From Chloroflexota bacterium (lineage in GTDB: Bacteria > Chloroflexota > Limnocylindria > Limnocylindrales > CSP1-4): a DNA stretch of 64,000 bases. This document shows positions 10,160-59,442 of this stretch, piece by piece. The stretch spans positions 195 to 64,194 of the forward strand of contig JAJYNJ010000080.1 in NCBI GenBank assembly GCA_021786385.1. Direction: 5' to 3'. The stretch's first letter is position 1. Every line of letters begins with the position of its first letter. The notes beneath the pieces were generated by a model. That model saw only the letters and a program-made list of their open reading frames with translations, was not told the origin of the DNA and did no database searches. The position numbers and the translations under genes are program-made.

Positions 10160-10963
10160 GTGGTGCTCCTCGGCCTCAAGCTCGTCCTGACGCCCCTGCT
10201 GATCGGCGGGGCCACGGTCGGCGCGCGGCGGTGGGGCCCGCTGATCGGTGGCTGGCTGGTCTCGTTGCCGCTCACCTCGGGGCCGGTGGCCCTCTTCCTC
10301 GCGCTCGACCGCGGCACCTCCTTCGCCGCGACCGCCGCAGACGCGTCGCTCGTGGGCAACGTCGCCATCATCGCCTACTGCGTCGCCTACGCGACGGTCG
10401 CCCGGCGTGCCGGGTGGCGCGCGGCCATCATGGCGGCCAGCGTCGGCTGGTTGGTGGCGGCGCTGGCCCTGCAACCGGTGCTGGCGCTTCCGGTCGGCCT
10501 CCTCTTCCTGCTGGTTGCCGCGGTCTGGGTCCTCGCGCTACAGGTCATGCCGGCCGGGACGGCGCGCCCCTCCGACGTGCCGCCGCCCCGCTGGGATCTG
10601 TCGCTGCGCATCGTCGTGGGCACCGCCGTGGTCGTCGGCTTGACCGCCGCCGCGCCCTACCTCGGTTCAACCGTCAGCGGGCTCCTGGCGATGCTGCCGG
10701 TGATCGCCACGGTCCTCGCGATCTTCACCCATCGCCGGGACGGCGCCGGCACCGCGATCGGCGTGCTGCGGGGCATCCTGACCGGACTCGTCGGAACGGC
10801 GGCGTTCCTGGCGGTCGTCAGCGCCTCGATCGTGCGCCTCGGTGTCGCGCTCTCGTTCGCGGCCGCGATCGCGACCGTGGTCGCGGTCCAGCTGCTGGCC
10901 CTGACGGCCCTGCGCCGCCAGGGCGCCACGGGCGTCGGGCAGGCTGGCGCCGGTAGGGCCTGA
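10160..10963 (+). CDS. Hypothetical polytopic membrane protein
   Basis: 267 aa with 7-8 strongly hydrophobic helical segments. Its last ~300 nt overlap, antisense, the 3' extension of the ydeP-like ORF. Confidence 0.5.
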   Translation: MVLLGLKLVLTPLLIGGATVGARRWGPLIGGWLVSLPLTSGPVALFLALDRGTSFAATAADASLVGNVAIIAYCVAYATVARRAGWRAAIMAASVGWLVAALALQPVLALPVGLLFLLVAAVWVLALQVMPAGTARPSDVPPPRWDLSLRIVVGTAVVVGLTAAAPYLGSTVSGLLAMLPVIATVLAIFTHRRDGAGTAIGVLRGILTGLVGTAAFLAVVSASIVRLGVALSFAAAIATVVAVQLLALTALRRQGATGVGQAGAGRA

Positions 10964-13294
10964 CGCCGCCCCGGCGGCTACGGAACCGTGCACCGCCGCT
11001 GGCAGGATCTCGACCGTCGCGTTGTAGTCGGGGACCAACGCGACCGGGTCGCGGCGGCCCGGTCTGATCAGCGGGTTCGCCTCGGGAAAGAACATCTGCA
11101 CGTTGCGCGGCCGGATCGCTGCAAGCCTGACGTGTGCCTGCACCTCGCCATCCGTGGAGCGCACCCGCACCGGATCGCCTTCGCGGAGCGCCAGCGCCGA
11201 CGCGTCCTCGCGCGAGATGAAGAGCGCGTCGCGCATGGCGCCGGTCAGCGGATCGCGTTGCTTGAACACCATCGAGTTGAACTGCTTGCCGCGCCGGGTC
11301 GAGAGCAGGAAGTGTCCATCCGGGATCGCCAGCTCGGGCGGCTCGACCGGATCGAAGTGCGCCTTGCCGTCCGGCGTCGGGAAGACCCAGCCGTCACAGA
11401 GGCGCTCGCCGCCCCACTGCACTTGGTCGCCGGCCCTGCGCAGCGTCTCGATCCCCCGGTACGCCGGTATCACCCGCGCGATCTCGTCGCGGATCTGCTG
11501 CCCGCTGCGGAACTCGACCAGGTGTGCCCGCTCCGGGTCGACCCTGTGGGCCAGATCGACGAAGATCTCCCACTCGCTGCGCGCCTCGCCGACCCGAGGG
11601 CCCGGGATGCGCGGGCTGAACAGGACCCGTCGCTCGGTCGTCGTTTCCGTGCCTCCGCCGGGCTGTTCGTAGCGCGTCCGTGCCGGCAGCAGCACCACCG
11701 CCTCGGCCGGGTCGACCAGCATCTGGGTGGTGACCACGATGTCCTGATGGACGCGCAGCGGCACCCGCGCGAGCGCCTCGTGGACCGCCGCCGGATCGGG
11801 CAGGACGTCGAGGAAGTTGCCGCCGCTCGAGTAGAGGACGTCCAGCTCGCCACGGCCCGCCGCTTCGATCATCTCGGCCGCCGACAGTCCCCGTTCGCCG
11901 CGCACCGCGAAGCCGTACTGGGCGGAGAGTCTCGCGGCGCTCTCCGGCGTGATCGGGATACCGCCCGGCAGCACGGTCGCGTAGCAGCCCATCTCGGCGC
12001 CGCCCTGTACCCCAGAGTGGCCGCGCATCGGCATCAACCCGGCCCCCACGCGCCCGACGTTACCGCGGGCCAGTGCCAGGTTCACCATCGCCCGCACGTT
12101 GTCGCTCCCGCAGACGTGCTGCGTGATGCCCATCGCCCAGACGATCACCGCCGATCCGGCCGCGGCGTAGAGCCGCGCGAACTGCGCCATCTGCGCCCGG
12201 GTCGCGCCGCTCGCGCGCTCCAGGTCGTCGAACGACTGGCGGTCCAGTGAGGCGCGCAGCTCCTCGAAGCCGCTCGCGTGCTCCGCAATGAACCGCTCGT
12301 CGACGCCACCTTCGGCGATGAGGAGCTTGAGGACGCCGTTGATGAACGCGACGTCGCCGCCCGTGTGCACGGGGAACCAGGCATCGCTCATCTTGGTGCC
12401 GAAGATCGCGCTCTCGACGTTGGAGGGCACCCAGTAGCGCTCCATGCCGGGCTCGCGGAGCGGGTTGACAACGATGACCTTGGTCCCGCCCTTGCGTGCC
12501 AGGTAGAGGTACTTCATGAAGACCGGCTGCGCGTTCGCCACGTCGGCCCCGAAGATCACGACCAGGTCGCTCTGCAGGACGTCGGTGTAGGAGATCGTGG
12601 TGGCGGCTACGCCGAGCGCCTTCTTGAGCCCTGCCGTGGAGGGCGAATGGCAGACTCGGGCCGCATTGTCGACGTTGTTCGTGCCGAGGAAGCGCGCGAC
12701 CTTCTGCGCGACGTAGTAGACCTCGTTGGTGATGCCGCGGCTGGTCAGGTAGAACGCGATCCGGTCGGGATCGGCGCGGCGGATGCGGCCCGCGATCAGC
12801 TCGAGCGCCTCATCCCAGGTGCTGCGGCGGAAGCCCGGCTCCCCCTGCCGCCGCACCATCGGGTAGGCCAGCCGCCCCATGTCCCGCAGCTCCGCCCCGC
12901 TCATCGCGCGCAGCGCCGCGACGTCCGCCAGGCGGCCGTGGTCGAACGGGCGCGCGGTGTTGTACTTGAGCAGGTTCAGGCGGGTCGTGCAGAGATGCAC
13001 GCCGTCGATCGTCCAGTCGTGGAAGCCGCTGACGCCGAGGGCGCAGCCATCGCAGACGCCGTTGCGCAGGATGCGCAGCGCGTACGGGAGGGCGTGCCGG
13101 TTCTCCCAAATGGTCTGGGCGATCTCGAGATAGTGGTTCGGTTTCTGCTCGCCGATCCCGTTCGGCTTCCAGCCCGCCCAGAGTTCCGGGGCGACGAGTC
13201 GGGGCCGCTTGGGCCCGCGCGCCCGGGGGGCCTGTGCCGGTCGCTGCCCGCCTTCCGGCATCCCCTCTGCTGCCGACGATTGGTGGATGGCCAT
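10667..13294 (-). CDS. ydeP: FdhF/YdeP-family molybdopterin oxidoreductase (formate dehydrogenase H-like)
   Basis: MopB-type molybdoenzyme with an N-terminal Cys cluster (CDGCALG, C…C) and the YdeP-like C-terminus PEANPLIRPGRRDPVALVPDYNATVEIL. Its ATG at 13294 overlaps the fdhD stop. The final ~95 codons before the stop at 10667 are low-complexity, charged sequence, so the true 3' end is doubtful. Confidence 0.8.
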   Translation of the reverse strand: MAIHQSSAAEGMPEGGQRPAQAPRARGPKRPRLVAPELWAGWKPNGIGEQKPNHYLEIAQTIWENRHALPYALRILRNGVCDGCALGVSGFHDWTIDGVHLCTTRLNLLKYNTARPFDHGRLADVAALRAMSGAELRDMGRLAYPMVRRQGEPGFRRSTWDEALELIAGRIRRADPDRIAFYLTSRGITNEVYYVAQKVARFLGTNNVDNAARVCHSPSTAGLKKALGVAATTISYTDVLQSDLVVIFGADVANAQPVFMKYLYLARKGGTKVIVVNPLREPGMERYWVPSNVESAIFGTKMSDAWFPVHTGGDVAFINGVLKLLIAEGGVDERFIAEHASGFEELRASLDRQSFDDLERASGATRAQMAQFARLYAAAGSAVIVWAMGITQHVCGSDNVRAMVNLALARGNVGRVGAGLMPMRGHSGVQGGAEMGCYATVLPGGIPITPESAARLSAQYGFAVRGERGLSAAEMIEAAGRGELDVLYSSGGNFLDVLPDPAAVHEALARVPLRVHQDIVVTTQMLVDPAEAVVLLPARTRYEQPGGGTETTTERRVLFSPRIPGPRVGEARSEWEIFVDLAHRVDPERAHLVEFRSGQQIRDEIARVIPAYRGIETLRRAGDQVQWGGERLCDGWVFPTPDGKAHFDPVEPPELAIPDGHFLLSTRRGKQFNSMVFKQRDPLTGAMRDALFISREDASALALREGDPVRVRSTDGEVQAHVRLAAIRPRNVQMFFPEANPLIRPGRRDPVALVPDYNATVEILPAAVHGSVAAGAASGPTGASLPDARGALAAQGRQGQQLDRDHGRDRGRERERDTEAHDRGADDRQERRRSDESGQDAPQHADRGAGAVPAMGEDREDRGDHRQHRQEPADG

Positions 13295-13295
13295 G

Positions 13296-14144
13296 TCAGA
13301 CCTCCAGCTCGATCCGCTCTGGGTGGGCGTACACGTTGAAGCCATCGCCTCGGAGGAAGCCGACCAGCGTCATGCCCAGCCGTGCGGCGGACTCGGCCGC
13401 CAGATCGGTGGGCGCGGAGATCGCGCAGGTCACGGGGATCCCGGCCATCGCGGCCTTTTGCACGATCTCGAAACTGATCCGCCCAGAGACCAGCAAGAGC
13501 GATCGGCGCAGCGGCAGGCGACCGGCCAGCAGCATCGCTCCCACCAGTTTGTCGACGGCGTTGTGGCGCCCGACGTCCTCGCGTGCGGCGATCAGGCGCC
13601 CCGAGGTGTCGAAGAGCCCGGCCGCGTGCAGGCCGCCGGTGGCCTCGAACGCGCGCTGGGCGGCGCGCAGGGCCAGCGGCAGCCGCAGCACCGCCTCCCG
13701 CGGGACGGTGGGGCCGGCAGGGAGCGGCTCGCAACGCAGCACCACCGCGTCGAGACAGGCCTTGCCGCAGATGCCGCAGCTCGCGGTGGCCACGAAGTTG
13801 CGGCCGGAGACCGTGTCGGCATCGAACGCCCGGGTGAGCCGCACGGTGACGACGTTGTCGGGCCGTCCGACCGTGCCCGGATCGCCGAGCTCGATCCCGA
13901 CGATCTCGCCAGGGGCGATCAGGCCCTCGGTGCAGAGGAAACCCGCGGCCAGTTCTTCGTCGTGCCCCGGCGTGCGCATGGTGACCGCCACGGAGACCGC
14001 GCACTGACCGGGACCCGCGACGCGGATCTCCATCGGCTCCTCGCCGGCGAGCGCGTCTGGGCGTGAGGAGACTGCGGTACCGCGGACGGCGAGCGTCCGC
14101 GTCGCGACGACGTCCCGGCTCGGCGAGGAAAGCTTGGCGGACAC
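13296..14144 (-). CDS. fdhD: Formate dehydrogenase accessory sulfurtransferase FdhD
   Basis: FdhD family with conserved GRHNA and the CGICG cysteine motif. It is translationally coupled to the downstream ydeP-like gene. Confidence 0.85.
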   Translation of the reverse strand: MSAKLSSPSRDVVATRTLAVRGTAVSSRPDALAGEEPMEIRVAGPGQCAVSVAVTMRTPGHDEELAAGFLCTEGLIAPGEIVGIELGDPGTVGRPDNVVTVRLTRAFDADTVSGRNFVATASCGICGKACLDAVVLRCEPLPAGPTVPREAVLRLPLALRAAQRAFEATGGLHAAGLFDTSGRLIAAREDVGRHNAVDKLVGAMLLAGRLPLRRSLLLVSGRISFEIVQKAAMAGIPVTCAISAPTDLAAESAARLGMTLVGFLRGDGFNVYAHPERIELEV

Positions 14145-14385
14145 CGCGCTGCCTCGGGATGCTTGGCCTGAGCGGGCAATCGGCTCAGCGGCACCGTCGC
14201 CCGATCTGGGGGCGAGCGGTGCGCCCGACTATAGCCCATCAGGCTCGGCTGTGCCGTCGGGCGCGATGGTGGGCGCTCGCCATGGCCGGCGGCGCAGGGC
14301 GCGTGCGGTGGGCGTGCCGCGCCCGAGGCGCCACAATATCCTGGAGCGGTCCGGTACCGCGCGGTCGACGGAGGTGGTGCGCTCG

Positions 14386-14694
14386 ATGGACGATCGGTCG
14401 GAGCCGGTGAACGGTCTCAGCCTGGACGCCTGGCTGGCGCTGCTGCAGGAGGTCCCAGGACTCGCCGCGCTCGAGGTCAGCCGCGACGAGCAGCGTGCGC
14501 TGCTCGACTTGACCCGCGTGGCCGCGCATCGCAGCGCGCGCGCGGCGGCCCCCATCACGGCGTTTCTGGTCGGTCTGGCGCTCGCATCGACCGAACCCGC
14601 GCAGCGGGCCGCCCGGATCCGCCACTTCACGGCCCTGCTCGAGTCGTCCGCCGTGGACGTGCCTGCCGCGCCGCCGGACACGGGCGGCGGCTGA
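14386..14694 (+). CDS. Small hypothetical protein (~102 aa), divergent from fdhD
   Basis: ATG at 14386 preceded by GGAGGTGGTG. The product is alanine-rich and helical (MDDRSEPVNGLSLDAWLALLQEVPGL…) with no recognisable catalytic motif. Confidence 0.45.
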   Translation: MDDRSEPVNGLSLDAWLALLQEVPGLAALEVSRDEQRALLDLTRVAAHRSARAAAPITAFLVGLALASTEPAQRAARIRHFTALLESSAVDVPAAPPDTGGG

Positions 14695-14721
14695 GGCGGG
14701 CGGGGGCCGAGGCGGGCGGAC

Positions 14722-15504
14722 GTGGCGCCGTCTGCCGTGATCGAGCTGCGCTGTTACGGGCCCCTGAACGACTTCCTGCCCCTGGCCCTCCGGGGGCGCT
14801 CGTTCCGGCGTCGGCTCTTCGGCACGCCGGCCGTCAAGGACGTGATCGAAGCCGCCGGGATCCCGCATCCGGAGGTCGAGGTCGTGCTCGTGAACGGCAC
14901 GGCTGTCCCGTTCGGGCACCGGCTCGCGCCCGGTGATCGGGTCGCCGTCTACCCGCCCTTCCGTTCGCTCGACCTGGACGCCGTGGTGCGCGCGGACCCC
15001 CGGCGTGTGACAGGCGGGGAGCCGCAGTTCGTGCTCGACGGGCACCTCGGCCGGCTCGCCGCGTACCTGCGGTTGGCCGGTTTCGATACGCTCTACCGGC
15101 GCGATGCCGAGGACGACGGACTGGCGCGTCTCGCGGCGGATGGACGCATCCTGCTCACCCGCGACATCGGGCTACTGAAGCGGTCCGCGGTCGTCCGGGG
15201 CGCCTTCGTGCGATCGGATCGCCCGGCAGACCAGCTCGTCGAAACCTTCCGCCGGTTCGATCTGGCCACCGCGGTCCGCCCCTTCGCGCGCTGCCTGCGC
15301 TGCAATCGGCTTCTCGAGCCGGTGGAGCGGGAGGCCGTGCGCGATCTCGTCCCGACCAGGGTCTACCGCGAACAGGCCGCCTTCCGGCGCTGCCCGCAGT
15401 GCGGAGGGTTGTTCTGGCGGGGCTCGCACGTCGCGCGCATGGCGCGGCTGCTCGAGCGGACGCTGCGGGCCGCCGCGGGGCCGGATTGCAAGCCGTTGCA
15501 GTAG
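14722..15504 (+). CDS. Mut7-C RNase-domain protein with N-terminal ubiquitin/MoaD-like domain and C-terminal zinc ribbon
   Basis: N-terminal MoaD/ThiS-like segment (IELRCYGPLNDFL…VLVNG) followed by a PIN-like Mut7-C core. A C-terminal C-x2-C…C-x2-C ribbon is present (CLRCN…CPQCG). Confidence 0.7.
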   Translation: MAPSAVIELRCYGPLNDFLPLALRGRSFRRRLFGTPAVKDVIEAAGIPHPEVEVVLVNGTAVPFGHRLAPGDRVAVYPPFRSLDLDAVVRADPRRVTGGEPQFVLDGHLGRLAAYLRLAGFDTLYRRDAEDDGLARLAADGRILLTRDIGLLKRSAVVRGAFVRSDRPADQLVETFRRFDLATAVRPFARCLRCNRLLEPVEREAVRDLVPTRVYREQAAFRRCPQCGGLFWRGSHVARMARLLERTLRAAAGPDCKPLQ

Positions 15505-15554
15505 CGGTATGATGCGCCCACTCGACACAATCGCAGCAGCGAGGTCCGCGTCCC

Positions 15555-16661
15555 GTGTCTACTCTCTGGCGAGTCGTCTCCCGTCCGAGCCCGCTGCGCA
15601 CGAGGATCGTCGCGATCTACGGCGGCCTGGTCGGGTTCACGATCTTGTGCCTCGCCCTCCTCCTCACGGTCGGGCTCCCATACCCGCAGCTGGTGGGCGC
15701 GGGCGTCCTGGCCTACACGCTCGGCCTGCGCCACGCCTTCGACGCCGACCACATCGCCGCCATCGACAACACCACCCGTAAGCTGATGCAGGACGGGCAA
15801 CGACCGGTGGCGGTGGGCCTCTTCTTCTCGCTCGGCCACTCGACGATCGTGGTGCTCCTCTCGGTGCTGCTGGCGATCTCGGCCTCGGTCGCGAGCGACA
15901 TCCCGACGCTCCAGAGCATCGGCGGTCTGATTGGGACGGCTGTCTCGGCGACCTTCCTGCTCGTGATCGGCCTGATCAACCTCGTCGTGCTGGTCGACAT
16001 CTACCGGCTGTTCCGGCAGGTCTCGGCGGGCGCCGGCTACAGCGATCAGTCGCTCGAGGAGCTGCTCCAGAACCGCGGCGTGTTGGCGCGCATCTTCCGG
16101 CCGATGCTGCGGCTGGTGCGCAAGAGTTGGCACATGTACCCGGTCGGGTTTCTCTTCGGACTCGGGTTCGATACCGCGAGCGAAGTGGCCCTGCTGGGGT
16201 TGGCGGCGACCGCCGGCGGCGAGCGGATTCCGATCGCGTTCATCCTGATCCTGCCGGCCCTCTTCGCGGCGGGCATGATGACGATGGACTCGACCGACCA
16301 GATCCTGATGCTGGGCGCCTACGGCTGGGCGTTCCTGCGGCCGATCCGCAAGCTGTACTACAACCTCACGATCACTTTCATCTCGGTCGTCATCGCTTTC
16401 GTCATCGGCGGCATCGAGGTACTCAGCATCATCGGCGACCAGCTCGGTCTGCGCGGCGGCATCTGGAGCTTCGTCGCGAACCTCGACTTCGCGGTGGTGG
16501 GCGTCGTGATCGTCGGGATCTTCCTCGTGAGCTGGGTCGGCTCGACGCTGATCTACCGGCTCAAGGGCTACGATGCCCTGGGGGGACCTGCGGGCCCAGA
16601 ACCGGCGGAGACCGCGGTCCCGGAGCCGGCCGAGGCGGGGCCGGCCGAGTCGGCCGCGTAG
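15555..16661 (+). CDS. High-affinity nickel/cobalt permease (NiCoT; HoxN/NixA family)
   Basis: NiCoT signature in TM2 (LGLRHAFDADHIAAIDN = HX4DH). It has 8 TMs and the GxxFDxxxE-like motif (GLGFDTASEVA). Confidence 0.85.
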   Translation: MSTLWRVVSRPSPLRTRIVAIYGGLVGFTILCLALLLTVGLPYPQLVGAGVLAYTLGLRHAFDADHIAAIDNTTRKLMQDGQRPVAVGLFFSLGHSTIVVLLSVLLAISASVASDIPTLQSIGGLIGTAVSATFLLVIGLINLVVLVDIYRLFRQVSAGAGYSDQSLEELLQNRGVLARIFRPMLRLVRKSWHMYPVGFLFGLGFDTASEVALLGLAATAGGERIPIAFILILPALFAAGMMTMDSTDQILMLGAYGWAFLRPIRKLYYNLTITFISVVIAFVIGGIEVLSIIGDQLGLRGGIWSFVANLDFAVVGVVIVGIFLVSWVGSTLIYRLKGYDALGGPAGPEPAETAVPEPAEAGPAESAA

Positions 16662-16797
16662 CAGCGGTCGCGTGGTGCAGCTCGCGTCGTCTCCGCCACA
16701 AGGGAGGGATCGCTTGCCACGGCGTACAGAAGGGCCCCACGCCGAGCGCCATCCGCGGGGGGCGCCGGCCGGCCCGTGGGAAGGGCTCGCCGAACGG

Positions 16798-17238
16798 ATG
16801 CGCGCCAGCGGCCTGCGCTGGACGCCCCAGCGCCGGGCGCTCGTCGCGGTGCTCCGTGAGACGAACGGCCACGTGTCGGCAGCCGAGTTGATCGAACGCT
16901 GTCGAGCGCGCGACCCGGCCACGACCCCTTCGACCGTCTATCGCACGCTCGACGTGCTCGAGGTGCTGGGCCTCGTGCGCCACGGCCATGGGATCGACGG
17001 CCGCGGCGAGTACCACGTGCTGCCGCAGGCCGAGCATGGACATCTGTATTGTCGTGAGTGCGGCGCGACGCGCGAGATCTCCGACGCCGACGCGGCCGCG
17101 CTGGTGGCCCAGTTCGAGACGCGCCATGGGTTCGCGGTGGACCTCTCGCACGTGACGATCGTGGGGCGCTGCCGATCATGTGGGGAGGCGGCGCGCCGCG
17201 TCCCGGGCTCGGCGGCCACGGCCGACCGTCAGCCGTAG
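16798..17238 (+). CDS. Fur-family metal-responsive transcriptional regulator (candidate nickel regulator Nur)
   Basis: Fur fold: a winged helix (TPQRRALVAVLRETNGHVSAAEL…TVYRTLDVLE) followed by a metal-binding H/C-rich domain (HGHGIDGRGEYHV…HGHLYCRECG…CRSCG). It sits immediately downstream of the NiCoT permease. An alternative TTG start at 16714 is preceded by GGGAGGG. Confidence 0.75.
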   Translation: MRASGLRWTPQRRALVAVLRETNGHVSAAELIERCRARDPATTPSTVYRTLDVLEVLGLVRHGHGIDGRGEYHVLPQAEHGHLYCRECGATREISDADAAALVAQFETRHGFAVDLSHVTIVGRCRSCGEAARRVPGSAATADRQP

Positions 17239-18074
17239 CGGGCGTCGCGCTCGCGCAGCGCGGCCACCAGCTGCGCCTCGGTGGGCGTGCTGCCCAGTCC
17301 CAGGGCCCCGCCGACGACAGCCGCCGGCGGTGGGTCGAGGTGCGTCGAGCGGAGGACCTCCCAGGCCGCGGGGGCGAAGACCTCGTCTGGCGTGCCGTCC
17401 GCCACGATGGCGCCCTCGCGCATCACCACGACCCGCTCGAAGGTCTCCGCCACGAAGCGCATATCGTGGCTCGTGGCGAGCACCGTCCGGCCCTCGTCCG
17501 CGAGACGCCGCACGACCTCCTCGACCAGGCCGAGCCCGCGCCCATCCTGCCCGGTCGTCGGTTCGTCGAGCGCGACGATCGGCGTGCGCATGGCGAGGAT
17601 CGCGGCCAGGGCGACCAGCTTGCGCCGCGAGAACCCGAGGTTGAACGGGTTCGCGTGCTCGAGGCCACGCAGCCCGACCGCCTCGAGCGCCTCCATCACC
17701 GCACTGGCCAGGTCCGCGCCGGTCAGGCCCAGGTTGCGGGGACCGAAGGCGACCTCGTCCGCCACCTGTTCCTCGAAGATCTGCAGGTCGGGGTTCTGGA
17801 AGAGGAGGCCGACCTGCCGGGCAATCCGCTCGACCGGCACCCCCGCGGTCTCGCGTCCACGCACGAGCACCCGGCCGGCGCTGGGGCGCAGCAGTCCGTT
17901 CAGATGGCGCAGCAAGGTCGACTTGCCGCTGCCGTTCTGGCCGACGATCGCCACCCGCCCGCCCTCGGGGACGGCCAGGCAGACGTCGCGGAGTGCCCAG
18001 GTCCCGTCAGGGTAGACGAACGAGACGCCTTCGAGCTCGATGGCGTGGCTCGGCCGGCTGCCCCCCGCACTCAC
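17229..18074 (-). CDS. ECF/cobalt-type ABC transporter ATP-binding protein (EcfA/CbiO-like)
   Basis: Walker A GQNGSGKST, signature motif, Walker B ALDEPT. The start overlaps the upstream ATPase stop (ATGA). Confidence 0.85.
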   Translation of the reverse strand: MSAGGSRPSHAIELEGVSFVYPDGTWALRDVCLAVPEGGRVAIVGQNGSGKSTLLRHLNGLLRPSAGRVLVRGRETAGVPVERIARQVGLLFQNPDLQIFEEQVADEVAFGPRNLGLTGADLASAVMEALEAVGLRGLEHANPFNLGFSRRKLVALAAILAMRTPIVALDEPTTGQDGRGLGLVEEVVRRLADEGRTVLATSHDMRFVAETFERVVVMREGAIVADGTPDEVFAPAAWEVLRSTHLDPPPAAVVGGALGLGSTPTEAQLVAALRERDARYG

Positions 18075-18919
18075 CGCCCCGCCTCCGCGTCGAGGCCGCC
18101 CGGTCCGGGGCGGAGTGCGGCCACCACCGCCGCCTCGTCGAAGCGCACACCGGCGGCGCGCGCAGCCCGGGCGATGCGGATCCGCGAGGGGGGCAGGATC
18201 GCGAGCGCCTCGAGCAGCCGGTCGGCGAAGACCGTCTCGGCCGGCCCGTCGCGCACGACCGTGCCGTGGTCCATCAGGAGCAGCCGCTCGCAGAGCCCGT
18301 CGAGCAGGTCGAGCTTGTGTTCGATCACCAGGAGCGCGGTGCCGGTCGCGGCGAGGGCGTGGAGAGCCGCGCCGACGAGCCGCGTGCCGGCCGGATCGAG
18401 CTGCGCGGTCGGCTCGTCGAGGACGAGGTGGGCCGGATGCATCGCGAGCAGCGAGGCGATCGCGACCAGCTGGGCCTCGCCGCCGGACAGCCGGCGTGGA
18501 TCGCGCAATGCCAGGTCCCCGATGGCGAGCCGCCCGAGGGTCTCCTCCACCCGCGCGACGATCTCGGCACGGTCGAGTCCCAGATTCATGGGCCCCAGCG
18601 CCACCTCCTCGAACACGGTGCTGCTGACCTGCGAAATCTGCGTCGCCGGGTTCTGGAAGACGTAGCCGACCCGCTGGGCCACCTCGTACCCGGGACGCCC
18701 GGTCATGCGCTCGCCGTCGACCTCCAGATACCCGTCGAACGCGCCCCCCACCACGGCGGGCGCCATGCCTGCGGCGAGCAGGCCCAGCGTGGACTTGCCC
18801 GCCTCGTTCGGCCCGGTCAGCCCGACGATCTCCCCGTGGCGGATCTCGACGGCCACGTCGTGCACGGCGGGCTCCCGCGCGGCCGGATAGCGGTAGCTGC
18901 GACAGACGAGGCGCAACAT
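18071..18919 (-). CDS. ECF/cobalt-type ABC transporter ATP-binding protein (second ATPase, EcfA')
   Basis: Walker A GPNEAGKST, LSGGE signature, Walker B LDEPT. Its ATG overlaps the stop of the T-component gene (TGATG). Confidence 0.85.
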   Translation of the reverse strand: MLRLVCRSYRYPAAREPAVHDVAVEIRHGEIVGLTGPNEAGKSTLGLLAAGMAPAVVGGAFDGYLEVDGERMTGRPGYEVAQRVGYVFQNPATQISQVSSTVFEEVALGPMNLGLDRAEIVARVEETLGRLAIGDLALRDPRRLSGGEAQLVAIASLLAMHPAHLVLDEPTAQLDPAGTRLVGAALHALAATGTALLVIEHKLDLLDGLCERLLLMDHGTVVRDGPAETVFADRLLEALAILPPSRIRIARAARAAGVRFDEAAVVAALRPGPGGLDAEAGR

Positions 18920-19725
18920 CAGGCGAGCCAGCCGCCCAGGCGGGCGGCGATCACCAGCAGCACCGCGCCGAGCAGGGCGGCCCGGAAGCGCCGCTCCAGC
19001 GGTGGATCGGGCGGCCACCAGAGGAGGGTGCGCCGTCCCGGTCGGCCGCTCGCGCGCGATTCCATCGCCAAACTGCCCTCGCTCCAATCGTTGATCGCCG
19101 AAACGAGCGTCGGGAAGACGAGTGGCAGGCGCGCGCGGAAGGCGCCCCACGGGCCCCGGCCGATGGCCAGACCGCGGGCGCGCTGCGCGGCCGTGATCTG
19201 GCCCACACGGTCGCGCACCGCCGGTGCTAGGCCGAGCAGCCCGAGCACGCCGAAGACGAGGCCATGGGGGACGCCCCGGCGCTCCAAGTCGAGCGCCATC
19301 GCGCGGCGGTCCGTGGTCCAGGCGAAGAGCGCCGCCGCTGCGGTCACGGCAGCGACCCGCAACAGCACGTCGAGCGCGACCGCGGCTGCGTTCCATGGCG
19401 CGCTGCCGGCCGCCACGCCGGCGCTGCGGGACCCGAGCGCGAAGCGCTCGAGGCCGGCGAGCACCGCCAGCGGAGCGCTCACCTGTGCGCTGAGGAGCGA
19501 GATACGACGCACCAGTCGAGCCCAGACGACGGGCCCCGCCAGCAGCGCCAGCGCGGCGAGCGGGCCCGTCGCGCCCGGGACGACGAGCGCGACGACCAGT
19601 GCGACGCCGCTCAGGGTGAGTTTCGTGGCCGGGTTGCAGGCGTGATAGCGGGTCGCGGCCGGCGGACGCAGGCGCGCTAGGCTCCCGGGCGCTTCAGCCG
19701 CCCCGGCCGGGGGCTCGGGCGGCAT
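18919..19725 (-). CDS. ECF transporter transmembrane (T) component (CbiQ/EcfT family)
   Basis: Polytopic membrane protein with the CbiQ-like ARG motif region (…AQRARGLAIGRGP…). Its ATG overlaps the cbiO stop (TGATG). Confidence 0.75.
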   Translation of the reverse strand: MPPEPPAGAAEAPGSLARLRPPAATRYHACNPATKLTLSGVALVVALVVPGATGPLAALALLAGPVVWARLVRRISLLSAQVSAPLAVLAGLERFALGSRSAGVAAGSAPWNAAAVALDVLLRVAAVTAAAALFAWTTDRRAMALDLERRGVPHGLVFGVLGLLGLAPAVRDRVGQITAAQRARGLAIGRGPWGAFRARLPLVFPTLVSAINDWSEGSLAMESRASGRPGRRTLLWWPPDPPLERRFRAALLGAVLLVIAARLGGWLA

Positions 19726-20702
19726 CAATCGGTGTGGGTGGCCGGGTCGCCAGCCGGACCGGTGGTCGACCATGCGAACGACGCCGTGGTCGACGTTTCA
19801 GGCCGTGCCGCCGTCGACCCGTCGCCCGACCCGTCGCCCGACCCGTCGCCCGGCCCGTCGTCCGATGGCGGGCGTCGCTCGGGCGCCTGGTCCTCGTGGT
19901 GGCCGATGTCGTGTGCGTGCGCATGGAGCGCGCTGCCGTGCTGGTGCAGGTGCTCGTGGATCAGGTTCGCTCGGATCAACAGGGCCCAGTCGTCCAGGAT
20001 CGCCGCCGGCGCGCCGTCCGCGAGGATGCGCCGCTCCTCGCCGAGCACGATCACCCGGTCGGCGATGAGGGGCACGATATCGAGTTCGTGCGTGGCGGTG
20101 ATGAGGGTGCGGCCGGCCTCGCCAAGACGGCGGATCAGGTTGACGAGCACCCACTTGGTGCGCGGATCGAGCGAGGCCGTCGGTTCGTCGAGCAGGACGA
20201 CCTGCGGCTCGAGCGAGAGGACCGACGCGATGGCGGCCCGCTTCTGCTCGCCGCCAGACAGCTCGAAGGGGGCCCGTTGGGCCAGGTGCGCAATCCCCAT
20301 CATGGCCAACGCTTCGTCGCAGCGACGCTTCACCTCCGCCGCCGGCAGCCCCAGCTGTAGCGGCCCGAAGGCGACGTCGTCGAAGACGGTGGCGCTGAAG
20401 AGCTGGATGTCGGGGTCCTGGAAGACGAGGCCGACCGCGCGGTGAAATGTGAAGGCATCCTCGCCGTCGACGACCGAGGCGATCTCGCGGCCCAATGCCC
20501 ACATGCTGCCCTGCTGCGGTGCGATGATGCCGTCGAGGAGCTTGAGCAAGGTCGACTTGCCGCTGCCGTTCGCGCCGAGCAGCACGACCCGCTCGCCCTC
20601 GCGGATCTCGAGATCGACGCCATCGAGCGCGACGTGGTCGCCGCTGTAGACGTATCGGACGCCGCGCAGCGCGTAGAGCAGCCGGCCCTCGGCCGTGCTC
20701 AC
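19725..20702 (-). CDS. cbiO: Cobalt/nickel ECF transporter ATP-binding protein CbiO with a C-terminal His-rich and GDGS-repeat tail
   Basis: GTG start overlapping the cbiQ stop (GTGA). Walker A GANGSGKST, signature LSGGEQKR, Walker B LLDEPT. A tail HEHLHQHGSALHAHAHDIGHHED…GDGSGDGSGDGS follows. Confidence 0.8.
   Translation of the reverse strand: MSTAEGRLLYALRGVRYVYSGDHVALDGVDLEIREGERVVLLGANGSGKSTLLKLLDGIIAPQQGSMWALGREIASVVDGEDAFTFHRAVGLVFQDPDIQLFSATVFDDVAFGPLQLGLPAAEVKRRCDEALAMMGIAHLAQRAPFELSGGEQKRAAIASVLSLEPQVVLLDEPTASLDPRTKWVLVNLIRRLGEAGRTLITATHELDIVPLIADRVIVLGEERRILADGAPAAILDDWALLIRANLIHEHLHQHGSALHAHAHDIGHHEDQAPERRPPSDDGPGDGSGDGSGDGSTAARPETSTTASFAWSTTGPAGDPATHTD
19813..19860. repeat. Tandem 12-nt repeats (GACCCGTCGCCC x ~3-4) encoding the GDGS repeats in the CbiO tail
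   Basis: Read directly on the plus strand: …gacccgtcgcccgacccgtcgcccgacccgtcgcccggcccgtcg…. Confidence 0.5.
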
Positions 20703-21580
20703 GGCAGGAATGGACCCGCCAGAACGCCCACGGCGGCCACCGTCAGCGAACCCGCCAGGACCGCCCAGTCGGTCGTCCGCATGCGGTAGGTGCTGTACGC
20801 GCGGAGCTCGCCGGTGAAGCCGCGCGCCAGCATCGCCGCATACACATCGTTGCTCATCTTGAAGGCTCGATTCACCAGGGCTCCCATCGTGCCACTGATC
20901 CAGCGTCGCTGCTCCGCGCCGCTCGTCCGCCCCACGACGCGGCTCTTGCGGGCCTGCAGCACCCCGTTGACGGTGTGCAGGAAGAGGAAGATGTAGCGGT
21001 ACGTCATCGAGAGGATCAGCACGAAGACCTGCGGCACGTGCAGCGCCCGCAGGCTCTTGAGCAGATCGGCCCACGGGGTCGTCATCACGAGCAGCAACGC
21101 CAGCGAGACGCTGACGCCGACACGCGCCACGAAGATGACCCCGCCGACCACGCCCGGGAGGGACGGTGCAACGTGTAGCGGCCCCGCCGGGAGATCGAAG
21201 AGGCGCGGCCCCGGCACCAGGAAGAGGGCCGGGATCACGACGATCCCGGCCACCAACGGGATGCCCAACCAGACGCGTTTGACGAAGTACCGATAGGGCA
21301 CGTGGCTGGCGCCCGCGGCGGCCAGCACCACGAGGTAGAGGCCCGCCAGGACCGTGATCGATCCGCTCAGACTCGCCGCCAGCACCAAGGCCAGGAAGAT
21401 GGCGAGCTTGGCCCGCGGATCCCGTGCCTGCAGGAACCCGCGCTCCCGGGCGTGCTGCTCGGTGAAGACGGCGTGTTCGATCGACGCGGTGATTCCGGCG
21501 AGGGTCTGCTCGAGCCAGCCGATCCGACCCCGCCGGCGCTCGCGCCCAGCTGCCGCCGCGCCGGGCGCCGGGCCGCTCAC
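20699..21580 (-). CDS. cbiQ: Cobalt ECF transporter T component CbiQ
   Basis: GTG start overlapping the cbiMN stop (GTGA). The CbiQ/EcfT family membrane protein carries the conserved C-terminal ARG-type motifs (ARGFTGE). Confidence 0.8.
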   Translation of the reverse strand: MSGPAPGAAAAGRERRRGRIGWLEQTLAGITASIEHAVFTEQHARERGFLQARDPRAKLAIFLALVLAASLSGSITVLAGLYLVVLAAAGASHVPYRYFVKRVWLGIPLVAGIVVIPALFLVPGPRLFDLPAGPLHVAPSLPGVVGGVIFVARVGVSVSLALLLVMTTPWADLLKSLRALHVPQVFVLILSMTYRYIFLFLHTVNGVLQARKSRVVGRTSGAEQRRWISGTMGALVNRAFKMSNDVYAAMLARGFTGELRAYSTYRMRTTDWAVLAGSLTVAAVGVLAGPFLP

Positions 21581-22860
21581 GCCGTGCTGCCCATCTGGTC
21601 GGGCGCCGCCGACCTGCCGCCACCCAGCACCCGGGCCACCGCCGCGCTGAGGCCGCCCACGATCAGCATGCCCAGGATCCCCGTGATCTCGTAGCCGATC
21701 GCCGCGTGCCAGAGCGGGGCGTTCGCACCCTCGAAGAAGGGGAGCGGTACGTTGTAACCGGAGAGCGGCGCGCTGAAGATGCCCGACAGCTGCTGGAGCC
21801 CTTGCGGCACGTACCCGAACGCGGCCTCGACGTCCTGCGGGCTGCCCTCCCCGTAGGCGAAGCCTGGGGCGATCAGGCCGAGCGGTGCCACCACGGAAAT
21901 GGCGGTGAACGCGGCCCCGATCCGTTTGGCCGGCCGTGGGAGCAGCAGGTACGCGAGCGGCACGAGGACGAGGCCGATCAACGCGACGACGAGGAGCATG
22001 GTGCCGACGTCGGGCCAGCTGACCTGCGACCAGTCGGCGCCGTAGAAGTGGCCCGGGTCTCCGCCGCCCATCAGCAGTCCCAGGACCGCGACGACGAGGA
22101 CAGCGGCGCCGCCGGCGCCCAGCACCAGCTGCCAGAGTGGCCGGGGACTCGACTCGCCCTCGGCCGCGGCGTCGGGCGCGAAGATCCCCCGCAGCGAGGC
22201 GAGGTACTCGGGATGGCGCTGCTGGAAGTACGCCACGCCGAGCCCGGTGATGAGGGCCTCGACGATGGAGGCGCCGAAGGCATGTGCGGCGAGCATGGCG
22301 GGGACCGCCTGCCCGAGCGTGTAGGGGCTGTAGAGCGCGTGGCCGTTCTGCGTGAAGAAGATCGGCTCGACGCCGAGCTCGACGCCCACCGCGAGCGCCG
22401 CCACGGTGATCCCGACGTAGCCACCGATGGCGGCCGCCCAGACACGCCGCGTGGAGAGGAGCGGCGCGCGACCGGCCAGCAGCCGGTACGTCGCGTACCC
22501 GACGAACGGCAGAAGGATCCCCATGTTGAGGCAGTTGGCGAAGATCGCGAGCACCCCGCCGTCTCCGAAGAAGAGTGCCTGGATGATCAACGCCGTGCTC
22601 ACGGCGATCAGCGCCGCCCAGGGGCCGAGCACGATCGCGATGAGGGTGCCCCCGACGCCGTGGGCGGTGGTGCCGCCCGGCACCGGGACGTTGAACATCA
22701 TGATGGTGAAGCTGAGCGCCGCGAAGATCGCCAGCAGCGGGATGGTGCGGTTGTTGAGCACCCGCTTGACGCGCTGCGTCGCGATCGCCCACATGGGCAC
22801 CGTCGCGCCTCCGAGTCCGATCGAGATGACTGGACTCAGATAACCGTCCGGGATGTGCAC
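21577..22860 (-). CDS. cbiM: Cobalt/nickel ECF substrate-capture component CbiM with a long C-terminal membrane extension (CbiN-like / fused)
   Basis: GTG at 22860 with GGGAGG 6 nt upstream. The CbiM N-terminus (M)HIPDGYLSP is canonical. The CbiM core ends near …QQRHPEYLA, and ~190 further residues carry extra TM segments. Confidence 0.8.
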   Translation of the reverse strand: MHIPDGYLSPVISIGLGGATVPMWAIATQRVKRVLNNRTIPLLAIFAALSFTIMMFNVPVPGGTTAHGVGGTLIAIVLGPWAALIAVSTALIIQALFFGDGGVLAIFANCLNMGILLPFVGYATYRLLAGRAPLLSTRRVWAAAIGGYVGITVAALAVGVELGVEPIFFTQNGHALYSPYTLGQAVPAMLAAHAFGASIVEALITGLGVAYFQQRHPEYLASLRGIFAPDAAAEGESSPRPLWQLVLGAGGAAVLVVAVLGLLMGGGDPGHFYGADWSQVSWPDVGTMLLVVALIGLVLVPLAYLLLPRPAKRIGAAFTAISVVAPLGLIAPGFAYGEGSPQDVEAAFGYVPQGLQQLSGIFSAPLSGYNVPLPFFEGANAPLWHAAIGYEITGILGMLIVGGLSAAVARVLGGGRSAAPDQMGSTA

Positions 22861-22894
22861 CGCGTCCTCCCCGCCAGTGCTGCATGCACCGGCT

Positions 22895-22912
22895 GTTGCA
22901 ATACGTTGCAAT
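22895..22912. promoter_or_regulatory. Candidate Fur/Nur-type operator: two TTGCAA palindromic hexamers 10 bp apart (GTTGCAATACGTTGCAAT) in the cbiM / K-channel divergent intergenic region
   Basis: Read directly: …ggctgTTGCAAtacgTTGCAAtgagc… about 35-50 nt upstream of the cbiM GTG. TTGCAA half-sites match the published Nur-box half-site. The coordinates are within a few nt. Confidence 0.35.
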
Positions 22913-22983
22913 GAGCTGTCGGGATTGTAGCCGGCGCGCGGGCGGTTGGCGAGCGTCTGCGGCCGGGCCATACAATCGCCGCG

Positions 22984-24024
22984 ATGACCGACCACGCCGA
23001 ATCGGCCGCGTTACTGCGCCGGCGCACGCCGCTCGGCGCGCGCTTTGGGACGTCACACATTCGGCTCTGGCTCGTGCTCGTCGCGGCCGCCGTGGCCGTG
23101 GGCACCCTCGGCTACGTGGCCATCGAAGGCTGGTCACCGTTCGACGCGCTCTACATGACGGTCATCACCGTCACCACGGTCGGTTTCGGCGAGGTGCATC
23201 CGCTGAGTGCGGCCGGCCGGACATGGACGATGCTTGTGGCCGCCGGGGGCGTGGGGCTCCTCTTCGGGTTCGTCGGCGTGGTGGCCGAATCACTCTTCAC
23301 CGCGGCGACCAGCGGAGAGCGGGAGGCACGGCGGATGGCGCGTCGGGTAGAGGCCCTGCGAGGGCACTTCGTGCTGTGCGGCTACGGCCGCGTCGGTTCG
23401 ACGGTCGCGCACGAGCTGCGTCACGACGGCGAAGCCGTGGTGGTGATCGACGTGCTACCCGAGTCGCTGGACCGCGCACGCGCGGAGGGGTTCCCGGTCG
23501 TCGCCGGCGACGCGACCGATGACGCGACCCTGCACGCCGCCGGGATCGAGCGCGCCCGCGGCCTGATCACGACGGTCGACTCGGACGCCAACAACGTCTA
23601 TGTGATCCTCTCGGCGCGGGCGATCAACCCCGACCTCTTCGTGGTCGGCCGGGCGAACGCCGCGGGGGCGGAGGCCAAACTGATGCAGGCCGGCGCGGAC
23701 CGCGTGGTCTCGCCCTACACGATGGCCGGCCGCCGGATCGCCGGGCTGGCGTTGCGGCCGCGGGTCGTGGAGTACATCGACGCGGCCCTTTCGCACGGCG
23801 AGCTCGCGTTTTCGCTCGAGGAGGTGACCGCCCGCGAGGGCGATTCGATCGCCGGCAGCACCGTGGGCGAGCTGCGCGACCGCGGCATCTTCACGCTGGC
23901 CATCGTGCGGGAGGCGGGTGGCTACGCGGCCAATCCGGCGCCGGAACGGCGGATCGTGGCGGGCGAGACGCTGATCGTCTCGGGGAGCGCCGCGACGCTC
24001 GCCGCGCTGCGCGGCGGGGCGTAA
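22984..24024 (+). CDS. Potassium channel with RCK (TrkA-N/TrkA-C) gating domains (MthK/Kch-like)
   Basis: Two TMs flank the selectivity filter TVGFGE. A Rossmann RCK domain follows (VLCGYGRVGSTVA) with a C-terminal TrkA-C. Confidence 0.8.
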   Translation: MTDHAESAALLRRRTPLGARFGTSHIRLWLVLVAAAVAVGTLGYVAIEGWSPFDALYMTVITVTTVGFGEVHPLSAAGRTWTMLVAAGGVGLLFGFVGVVAESLFTAATSGEREARRMARRVEALRGHFVLCGYGRVGSTVAHELRHDGEAVVVIDVLPESLDRARAEGFPVVAGDATDDATLHAAGIERARGLITTVDSDANNVYVILSARAINPDLFVVGRANAAGAEAKLMQAGADRVVSPYTMAGRRIAGLALRPRVVEYIDAALSHGELAFSLEEVTAREGDSIAGSTVGELRDRGIFTLAIVREAGGYAANPAPERRIVAGETLIVSGSAATLAALRGGA

Positions 24025-52568: not shown

Positions 52569-53506
52569 CCCGTCTGCGGATCCCACCCCCCAGCCTGACC
52601 GACCTTGGACGACAGCGGCCGCCCGAGCACGGCGGCGATGAAGCGGGCCGCATCGAGCAGCCGCGGCAGGTCGACTCCGTGGCCGAACCCGAGGCCGTCG
52701 AGTAGGTAGACTAGGTCCTCGGTCGCCAGGTTGCCGGCCGCGCCGGGGGCGTACGGGCACCCGCCGGTGCCCCCCGTCGACGCGTCGAAGCAGCGGACGC
52801 CCGCGTCGAGACCGGCCACCACGTTCGCCACCGCGGTCCCGCGCGTATCGTGGAAATGGAGCGCCACTCGCTCCATCGGGATCCCCGCCGCGGTGGCTCG
52901 CGCGAGCAGCGCTCGCACGTGCGACGGCACGGCGACACCGACCGTGTCCCCGAAGCAGACTTCGTCCACGCCGAGATCCAAGAGCCGCTCGGCGACGCGC
53001 ACCGCGCGCTCGGGCTCGACCCGCCCGGTGTAGGGACAGCCGAAGGCGGTCGAGACGTATCCGCGCCGCCACCAGCCGAGCCCACCCGCCCGCTCCAGCA
53101 CTGTGGCGAACGTTTCGAGCGAGGCGTCTACGCGCATCCCGATGTTGTGCTCCGCAAAGGCGTCCGTGGCTGCGGTGAAGACCGCGATCGCGTCGGCTCC
53201 GGCGCTCGCGGCCCGTTCGAGACCGCGCAGGTTCGGCACGAGAACCGGATAGCGGACGCCCCGGCGGCGCGGCAGGAGGGGCAGCAGCGCATCGGCATCC
53301 GCGAGCTGCGGCACCGCCCGGAGTGCCACGAAGCTCGTGGCCTCGATCTCACGAAGCCCGGCCGCGACCAGCAATTCGATGAAACGGCGCTTCTCCACGG
53401 TCGGGACAGGCCGCGCCTCGTTCTGCAGGCCGTCGCGCGGTCCCACCTCGTAGATGCGGACGTATTCGCGACCCAGGTTCCCGCCGGGGCCGTCGGAGGC
53501 GCTCAT
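52538..53506 (-). CDS. Hydroxymethylglutaryl-CoA lyase
   Basis: HMGL family: EVGPRDGLQNE at the N-terminus, the catalytic Cys region GCPY, and HFHDTRG. 322 aa. Confidence 0.85.
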   Translation of the reverse strand: MSASDGPGGNLGREYVRIYEVGPRDGLQNEARPVPTVEKRRFIELLVAAGLREIEATSFVALRAVPQLADADALLPLLPRRRGVRYPVLVPNLRGLERAASAGADAIAVFTAATDAFAEHNIGMRVDASLETFATVLERAGGLGWWRRGYVSTAFGCPYTGRVEPERAVRVAERLLDLGVDEVCFGDTVGVAVPSHVRALLARATAAGIPMERVALHFHDTRGTAVANVVAGLDAGVRCFDASTGGTGGCPYAPGAAGNLATEDLVYLLDGLGFGHGVDLPRLLDAARFIAAVLGRPLSSKVGQAGGWDPQTGQPVGRGSEG

Positions 53507-55509: not shown

Positions 55510-55538
55510 CACGCCCCCATGGTAGCGGTGGGCGCCAG

Positions 55539-55808
55539 TCAGCCCTCCTGGTGCCGGTACCGCCGTGCCACCGAGATCGTCGCGATCCCCACCACCAGGG
55601 CCACCGAGTTCGAGACCACCAGCGCCGGGTTCCGGATCGAGAACCCGTACGCCGCCCAGAGCAGGAAGCCGACCAACAGGACGGACAGATACCCGATCGA
55701 AACGTCCGCCGACGATCGTCGTTGGACCATGCGTCTGATCTGGAGCAATGGGCTGATGCCCATGAGCACGCCCCAGGCCGTCGCCACGACGGCAAGCGCA
55801 TCCATCAT
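55539..55808 (-). CDS. SemiSWEET / PQ-loop small membrane transporter
   Basis: ~90 aa with 3 TMs and the PQ-loop motif (ISPLLQIRRMVQRRSSADVS). It is embedded between mccB and mccA. Confidence 0.6.
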   Translation of the reverse strand: MMDALAVVATAWGVLMGISPLLQIRRMVQRRSSADVSIGYLSVLLVGFLLWAAYGFSIRNPALVVSNSVALVVGIATISVARRYRHQEG

Positions 55809-56021
55809 GTCTCTCCCGCAAACACGACTGCGCTCTGGCGAACGGACCACGCTCACTGGATGCCAGGAGGAGCGCACGCGCGGCGATCACGATTGTACGA
55901 AGCGGCTGTCCGAAGCGGTGCCTGAAGAAGCGCCATCGGCCCGCCGCCTGCGCCCCTGGCGCCCGCGCGGCCGGGCCTCGGCTGGATGCAACGAGGCTCG
56001 GCCAGCTGAGTCGAGCCTTGG

Positions 56022-59111: not shown

Positions 59112-59442
59112 CGTCGGCCCGGCGCCGTGCGCCGGCGCCCGCCCCCCGTGCCTGCCCGTGTGCCCGACCCCGTGCCCGTCCCCCTGCGGAGCCGTGGGTC
59201 GGCGGGCACGGGGTCGTGCCGCACGGCCGTTCGCGGAGCAGCCTTTTTCCCCGGCCAGTGCCGCCATCCGGCACTTCTGGCTCGCCGCCCTGGGTCCCTT
59301 GCTGCAGCCGCGCCCCGGCAGAACGATGACGGCGATTGCGATGGCCAGGCCGAGGGGGCGGGGCGCGGGCTGACGGCGACCGCCGCCGGGCTGCCTCCCG
59401 CTGCGGGCCGACGCCCGTTGTCGAAGAGATGGGAGGTTGCCG

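Follow-up and report, generated by a model that had tools for sequence, protein, structure and literature searches.

A 64,000-nucleotide stretch of a Chloroflexota genome (assembly GCA_021786385.1, contig JAJYNJ010000080.1; hereafter the window) contains eight adjacent genes, which encode a nickel/cobalt permease, a Fur-family regulator, an energy-coupling factor (ECF) metal importer and a further ECF module. Our analysis suggests that this region is probably a nickel-uptake regulon of a high-GC, Limnocylindria-related Chloroflexota bacterium, with a non-metal module of the EcfT/EcfA1/EcfA2 type joined to its nik operon. Both parts appear to be of known kinds: a Nur regulon, found here in a new phylum and with an operator that is one base shorter, and a lineage-specific orphan EcfT-A-A' module. 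The window has a G+C content of 72%, and its genes were assigned from a listing of open reading frames, inspection of start codons and protein family scans. Homologues of the further module, which consists of a transmembrane (T) component and two ATPases (A1 and A2), were collected by scanning one genome per species, which yielded 80 loci, nearly all from Limnocylindria/Chloroflexota, and by a metagenome scan, which yielded 80 further loci. The features of the region are as follows, in window coordinates.

15486-15513, plus strand: nicT promoter and predicted operator, with the 6-4-6 box TTGCAAGCCGTTGCAG at 15486-15501 and the -10 element TATGAT at 15508-15513.
15555-16661, plus strand: nicT, a NiCoT-family nickel/cobalt permease of 368 amino acids (PF03824, TIGR00802, HX4DH motif).
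16714-17238, plus strand: nur-like gene for a Fur-family regulator of 174 amino acids (PF01475, match to structure 3EYY).
17229-18074, minus strand: A2, an EcfA2-like ATPase of 281 amino acids with the degenerate signature LGFSRRK instead of LSGGQ.
18071-18919, minus strand: A1, a divergent EcfA1-like ATPase of 282 amino acids with a canonical LSGGE signature.
18919-19725, minus strand: T2, an EcfT-like transmembrane component of 268 amino acids (ATG at 19725, match of its family profile to EcfT).
19725-20702, minus strand: nikO, a CbiO/NikO ATPase of 325 amino acids (best match CbiO, 5X3X).
20699-21580, minus strand: nikQ, a CbiQ-type T component of 293 amino acids (TIGR02454, 147.2 bits, above 111.8).
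21577-22860, minus strand: nik(MN), encoding a NikM-type S component with a fused membrane domain at its C-terminus, 427 amino acids (GTG start at 22860, N-terminus MHIPDG).
22896-22952, minus strand: nik promoter and predicted operator, with the -35 element TCGCCA at 22952-22947, the -10 element TACAAT at 22929-22924 and the box TTGCAACGTATTGCAA at 22911-22896.

The minus strand carries a chain of six genes in the order nik(MN), nikQ, nikO, T2, A1 and A2, and the plus strand carries nicT and the Fur-family gene. An earlier note on this DNA had described a fully coupled chain, and this was borne out, since the consecutive start/stop junctions read GTGA, GTGA, TGATG, TGATG and GTGA, which corresponds to overlaps of 4, 4, 1, 1 and 4 nucleotides. 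Two of its details needed correction: the first gene begins at the GTG at 22860 and not near 22912, which gives the N-terminus M-H-I-P-D-G, and the genes listed there as T-A'-A follow the order T, EcfA1-like, EcfA2-like. An alternative T2 start, the ATG at 19773, would give a 49-nucleotide overlap with nikO. A2 and the Fur-family gene are convergent and overlap by 10 nucleotides. The same eight-gene arrangement is present in four other, independent assemblies of the species-level group of the window (L001, L168, L169 and L170), which rules out an assembly artefact.

The first three genes of the chain are predicted to encode an importer of the nickel type, Nik(MN)QO, rather than CbiMNQO. Sequence comparisons revealed that residues 1-218 of Nik(MN) score 227.1 bits against NikM2 of Thermoanaerobacter tengcongensis (TtNikM2, 4M58) and 42.7 bits against RcCbiM of Rhodobacter. 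The Met1/His2 N-terminus is kept and a GGTTAH segment aligns with His67 of TtNikM2, in which Met1, His2 and His67 are the metal ligands (PMC3945884). NikQ scores higher against CbiQ (50.9 bits) than against EcfT (34.2 bits), and the best structure match of NikO is CbiO (5X3X, 180 bits). Because NikQ is of the CbiQ type and NikO of the CbiO type, Nik(MN)QO should form a complete group I ECF nickel importer by itself. The C-terminal membrane domain of Nik(MN), about 170 amino acids long, matched only the tail of NCBIfam PRK07331 (E = 1.7e-9), and its equivalence to an N component is putative; Pfam scans of this domain and of the NikO tail gave zero matches. Limnocylindrales very commonly encode this fused 427-amino-acid form (72-83% identity), under the label "cobalt transporter CbiM". 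The designation cbiM(N)-cbiQ-cbiO in the earlier note is therefore right in that the genes encode an ECF metal importer that has a Q and an O component of its own, but not as regards the Cbi type, given 227 bits to NikM2 against 43 to CbiM and no vitamin B12 riboswitch.

NikO also carries a conserved C-terminal motif, ANLIHEHLHQHG..HAHAH (consensus ANLIHEHLHxHG..HxHxH), which is found in loci L165-L167 as well. Its low-complexity (GDGS)n tail varies by strain, with NikO lengths of 325, 317, 333 and 337 amino acids.

The second importer, NicT, is a secondary transporter of the NiCoT family, as the earlier note had proposed from its HX4DH signature. The protein scores 338.8 bits against PF03824 and 393.4 bits against TIGR00802 (HoxN/HupN/NixA subfamily), above the cutoff of 333, and the signature lies in an RHAFDADH motif as H60-X4-D65-H66. 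The NicT equivalog NF052500 was not reached (392.9 bits, below the cutoff of 450).

It is unlikely that Nik(MN)QO and NicT import cobalt and not nickel. NiCoT members span nickel- to cobalt-preferring transporters, which counts in favor of cobalt, as does the CbiM label of the Nik(MN) family in databases. The square-planar site of the NikM type also accommodates Co(II) (PMC3945884), and this weighs against the nickel reading as well. On the other side, Nik(MN) is five times as similar to NikM2 as to CbiM, the operators described below are of the Nur type, and hydrogenase-associated genes lie nearby. Neither a B12 riboswitch nor B12 genes were seen in the window scans; the Rfam scan of the entire window returned zero matches, hence no cobalamin (B12) riboswitch, and a cobalt/B12 reading is thus without support.

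The Fur-family gene is best read as a Nur orthologue, which would make its product nickel-responsive. Its most likely start is the TTG at 16714, which has a GGGAGGG ribosome-binding site upstream and lies 52 nucleotides past the nicT stop, and nicT and nur are probably co-transcribed as one operon. The product contains a Fur-family domain (PF01475, 81.6 bits). Its closest solved structure is Nur of Streptomyces coelicolor (ScNur, 3EYY; single-sequence E = 7.5e-22), ahead of Zur of Mycobacterium tuberculosis, and a profile of five nik-adjacent regulator homologues scores 101.4 bits against 3EYY and 71.4 bits against the next match. All three positions of the Ni-site (His70, His72 and His126) align with histidines in the window regulator and in four nik-linked homologues, and His33, His88 and His90 of the M-site are kept. 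ScNur no longer binds DNA when any one of its three Ni-site histidines is mutated (PMC2691836). A Fur-family gene of the nur type also lies beside nik(MN)QO in L165, L166 and L167. The literature collection that was searched contained no report on Nur in Chloroflexi.

Both importer operons carry a predicted operator. The 16-bp palindrome TTGCAA-N4-TTGCA(A/G) occurs in the window only at the nicT and nikM promoters: TTGCAA-N4-TTGCA has four matches in 64 kb, which are two sites read on both strands, with a chance expectation of 0.04. The two boxes fall on the sole two sigma-70-like promoters predicted in 15300-23100. The first half-site of the nicT box doubles as the -35 hexamer; the nik box follows closely after the -10 element and covers the region where transcription is predicted to start. 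Boxes of the N4 form are also present upstream of nikMN in L001, L165, L166, L167, L168 and L169 and upstream of nicT in L001, L002, L005, L168 and L169, that is, at nikM or nicT promoters in 8 further loci overall. Among close strains the half-sites are invariant and the spacer varies (CGTA, TATG, GGGA). As background, a single match to the box with at most 2 mismatches was found in 1.6 Mb of unrelated Chloroflexota loci. The half-sites are identical to those of the footprinted S. coelicolor Nur box, tTGCaa-N5-ttGCAA, which controls nikMNOQ there too, and the spacer is one base shorter. Taken together, the conserved residues, the gene linkage and the recurrent boxes are best read as a Nur-type, nickel-repressed regulon, and the earlier suggestion that the gene downstream of nicT is a Nur candidate gains backing from all three.

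Some observations weigh against this assignment. In single-sequence comparison the regulator is 40% identical to ScNur and 39% identical to M. tuberculosis Zur. The spacer of the box is 4 bp and not the 5 bp of the characterized Nur box, and the canonical N5 box has no match in the window even with 2 mismatches. The fourth M-site histidine, His86, is replaced by Ala; in ScNur, the corresponding H86A change does not significantly impair DNA binding (PMC2691836).

The regulator could accordingly be viewed as a Zur, Fur or PerR protein, with the palindrome as a zinc- or iron-responsive operator, but we consider this very unlikely. The near-equal similarity to M. tuberculosis Zur would fit such a view, as would the two CxxC motifs of the protein and its NCBIfam matches, which comprise Fur, PerR and Zur, all sub-threshold. 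The profile search, however, separates Nur from the next match by 30 bits, and the Nur-specific triad is kept; the position corresponding to His70 is Thr in M. tuberculosis Zur. The predicted targets are all nickel importers, and we know of no Fur-family box other than the Nur box that matches these half-sites.

Under the Nur reading, the Ni(II)-loaded regulator would bind the TTGCAA-N4-TTGCAA palindrome at the nicT-nur and nik(MN)QO promoters. Because this palindrome overlaps the -35 element of nicT and adjoins the -10 element of nik, sufficient nickel would switch off both importers along with nur itself. One strain deviates in the regulator gene: in L168 (9488-9928; metagenome-assembled genome GCA_053498095.1), codon 100 of nur is changed from TAC to TAG and the gene is called as two fragments, which points to a sequencing error or to a strain that is naturally nur-null.

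The T2-A1-A2 set at the end of the nik operon appears to be neither a nickel/cobalt module nor a duplicate of NikQ/NikO, but a member of a non-metal family of the EcfT/EcfA1/EcfA2 type. A profile of T2 homologues scores 88.6 bits against the vitamin-type EcfT of Lactobacillus and 21.6 bits against CbiQ, and BLAST detected no similarity between T2 and NikQ. The best match of A2 is EcfA2 (172 bits), and A1 shows a slight preference for EcfA1 among ECF ATPases. The three ATPases of the locus, NikO, A1 and A2, share 35-40% identity with each other (BLAST), and cbiO-type models were matched by all three below threshold only. When the window is compared with L001, T2, A1 and A2 have ratios of nonsynonymous to synonymous substitutions (dN/dS) of 0.11-0.13; the module is under purifying selection and is not decaying. 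The earlier note had named a vitamin-type group II module with S components encoded elsewhere as the finding that would speak against its own proposal, and the data come close to this, with an EcfT-like T component and no S component in the window; an S component elsewhere is an assumption.

The two ATPases are asymmetric, also in loci L003-L164: A2 has LGxSRRK in place of LSGGQ, and in most A1 proteins linked to an S component the H-loop His is changed to Gln. The window A1 retains the H-loop His. For the family as a whole, these signatures imply one degenerate and one catalytic ATP site, an asymmetry that to our knowledge is unusual for ECF transporters.

Where the upstream sequence is long enough, essentially every other locus encodes a multi-pass protein of about 366 amino acids (S366) ahead of T-A1-A2. 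This protein scores 95.6 bits, below threshold, against the CD3073-family ECF S component (NCBIfam NF045596) and weakly against PF12822. Such T-A-A homologues behind a dedicated, CD3073-like S366 were found in about 140 Limnocylindria/Chloroflexota loci, for example as nucleoside hydrolase, S366, EcfT, A1 and A2 in L003 (7927-12425) and in L008-L084, and none of these about 140 modules is linked to CbiM or NikM. A gene for an inosine-uridine nucleoside hydrolase is present in 109 of 164 loci. These associations indicate that the family usually forms a dedicated S-T-A-A system whose substrate is probably nucleoside-like. S366 is about twice the usual size of an S component, and the cluster, probably a dedicated nucleoside-type ECF importer, appears to be uncharacterized; a literature search on CD3073 found no relevant report. 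In Limnocylindria, genes for a biotin carboxylase, an HMG-CoA-lyase-like protein and a carboxyltransferase flank S366-T-A-A (L003, 623-7867). The same genes are present in the window at 52577-57671, about 35 kb from T-A-A, a distance consistent with the module having moved in the window lineage.

A small clade lacks the S gene beside the module: it is absent in the window, L001, L002, L005, L006, L168 and L169. This S-less clade consists of the window species together with L002, L005 and L006, whose T components share 55-58% identity, and the metagenome scan for further members returned only S366-type relatives at no more than 45% identity. T components of the clade are 33-42% identical to S-linked T components, which share 57-100% among themselves; for A2 the identity is 54-65%. 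Fusion of the module behind nikO is confined to the window species. In L002, L005 and L006 two beta-lactamase-family genes are followed by T-A-A and then by nicT with a Nur box upstream; no nik(MN) was found within 10 kb of the module and no box upstream of T. The distance between T-A-A and nicT is about 1 kb or less in each of the two lineages of the clade, although the orientations differ. The nik(MN)QO operons nearest to that of the window (L165-L167, with nur alongside) have a peptide deformylase gene after nikO and no T-A-A.

The two beta-lactamase-family genes (L002, 3-1262; L005, 6959-9822; L006, 1-2025) encode secreted serine hydrolases and lie directly before the S-less module, 9 nucleotides from the T start. 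The gene before T in L002 had been considered as a CbiM-like S component; this was rejected, as it encodes a beta-lactamase-family protein. The deformylase genes (L165, 12241-12654; L166, 12121-12648; L167, 12339-12818) occupy the position that T-A1-A2 has in the window and may be nickel-linked paralogues.

We lean towards the reading that T-A-A serves S components encoded elsewhere and that its transcription together with nik is a chance outcome of gene order in this lineage. In most Chloroflexota the family comes with its own CD3073-like S component beside a nucleoside hydrolase, and the small clade has no such S gene at the locus. In the window species a start/stop overlap attaches the module to nikO, the last nik gene, and it would most likely still energize one or more S components encoded elsewhere, in a group-II-like manner. 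Some results count against this reading: a tblastn search of the 64-kb window with S366 gave no match, and Pfam scans of the other membrane proteins of the window identified AzlCD, ABC-2, MFS, LysE and CstA proteins and no S component. In addition, T-A-A is tightly coupled to nikO and is found close to nicT in each of the two lineages that make up the S-less clade, which could mean a nickel role.

Such a role would follow if the S-less EcfT-A1-A2 module had changed partners and were now an alternative, nickel-repressed energizer of Nik(MN) or of another nickel-related membrane protein, which we regard as improbable. The start/stop overlap with nikO under a Nur-box promoter, the purifying selection on the module genes and the closeness to nicT (about 1 kb at most) in each lineage despite their different orientations would all suit this idea, and the S-less T has diverged far beyond its ATPases, as expected after a change of docking partner. 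Yet NikQ and NikO are intact in the window, the module of L002, L005 and L006 follows beta-lactamase-family genes without a nearby nik(MN) or a box of its own, and the proximity to nicT was seen in two independent lineages only. We also know of no precedent for EcfT docking to NikM/CbiM or to a NiCoT protein. A more specific version, in which the captured module is a second, heterodimeric energizer with one degenerate ATP site and its partner is Nik(MN) or a nickel-related protein such as the neighboring NiCoT, is more doubtful still; if true, it would amount to a metal-regulated "module swap" between ECF classes. The proposal of the earlier note, that T-A-A is a duplicated or second nickel/cobalt energizing module and thus part of two tandem metal ECF systems, is extremely improbable, because translational coupling of all six genes, a nikO/T2 junction at which neither a promoter-like site nor a terminator was predicted, and the sub-threshold cbiO-type matches of all three ATPases are set against an EcfT-like rather than CbiQ-like T2 with no BLAST similarity to NikQ, an EcfA2-like A2, ATPases at 35-40% identity to NikO, about 140 homologous modules tied to a CD3073-like S component and none to CbiM/NikM, and closest nik(MN)QO operons that lack T-A-A.

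A possible consumer of the imported nickel lies at the end of the window.

59437-64000, plus strand: genes for HdrC, HdrB, HdrA and MvhD, followed by the beginning of a gene that resembles one for a hydrogenase small subunit.

HdrC spans 59437-60033, HdrB 60030-61025, HdrA extends to 63109 and MvhD/FlpD occupies 63106-63744. The first 86 codons of the following gene are the last of the window and bear a weak resemblance to a small subunit (Oxidored_q6, E = 7e-4); the [NiFe] large subunit lies outside the window. Of the nickel sink that the earlier note had seen in an Mvh/Hdr hydrogenase cluster, HdrCBA-MvhD is thus present, but the nickel-containing subunit is not in the window, and the genes are consistent with an Mvh-type hydrogenase just beyond it. 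HdrCBA-MvhD is found here in an apparently aerobic-type soil Chloroflexota context, with 2-oxoglutarate dehydrogenase and acyl-CoA dehydrogenase. Directly upstream of nicT (10667-15504) lie genes for FdhD, a molybdopterin oxidoreductase of 875-892 amino acids, a DUF6457 protein and a ThiS/Mut7-C fusion, which are also present in L001 and L168.

No result at this locus overturns current understanding. The locus would extend Nur-type nickel regulation, characterized in Streptomyces, to the Chloroflexota, and the 6-4-6 operator in place of 6-5-6 is a testable variant with clear phylogenetic footprints. The assignment to the nickel type would also correct the common "CbiM/cobalt" label of a 427-amino-acid fused Nik(MN) family that is very widespread in Limnocylindria. 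The orphan EcfT-A1-A2 module may be regarded as a small natural experiment in how ECF modules lose, and perhaps change, their partners.

Each part of the region can be compared with a known system. NicT resembles the NiCoT permeases (HoxN/NixA/NicT, TC 2.A.52) in its above-threshold PF03824 and TIGR00802 scores and its RHAxDADHI signature, but its score lies below the NicT equivalog cutoff (392.9 against 450), so that this model assigns it no metal preference. With NikM2N2QO of T. tengcongensis (TtNikM2, 4M58; the Nik(MN)QO systems of Rodionov and Eitinger), the window importer shares the NikM core (residues 1-218), the MH N-terminus, the GGTTAH histidine and dedicated Q and O genes downstream; in contrast to it, the M component is fused to the membrane domain of about 170 amino acids and NikO bears the conserved His-rich C-terminal motif. 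The S. coelicolor Nur regulon (sodF, nikABCDE, nikMNOQ; 3EYY) has in common with the window the Fur fold, the Ni-site triad, three of the four M-site histidines, the TTGCAA half-site palindrome and control of an ECF-type nikM operon, which is predicted here. It is set apart by the operator (6-4-6, 16 bp, in the window against 6-5-6, 17 bp), by Ala in place of His86 and by 40% identity; moreover, the host is a member of the Chloroflexota and not of the Actinobacteria, the regulator gene stands behind a NiCoT gene, and its nickel responsiveness is predicted.

Like the group II module EcfA1-EcfA2-EcfT of Lactobacillus brevis (4HUQ/4HZU), the further ECF module combines an EcfT-like T component with two different ATPases, one of them clearly EcfA2-like, and operons of the S-less clade contain no S gene. 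Unlike the L. brevis module, its gene order is T-A1-A2, its A2 signature is LGxSRRK, and its nearest relatives belong to dedicated group I S-T-A-A clusters. These relatives, the S366-T-A1-A2 clusters of Limnocylindria/Chloroflexota, encode the closest homologues of T2, A1 and A2 (mean identity 37%, 52% and 60%, respectively) and share the degenerate A2 signature. The window differs from them in having neither an S366 gene nor an adjacent nucleoside hydrolase, in a far more divergent T component and in the H-loop His of A1, which is kept here but mostly Gln in the S-linked clade.

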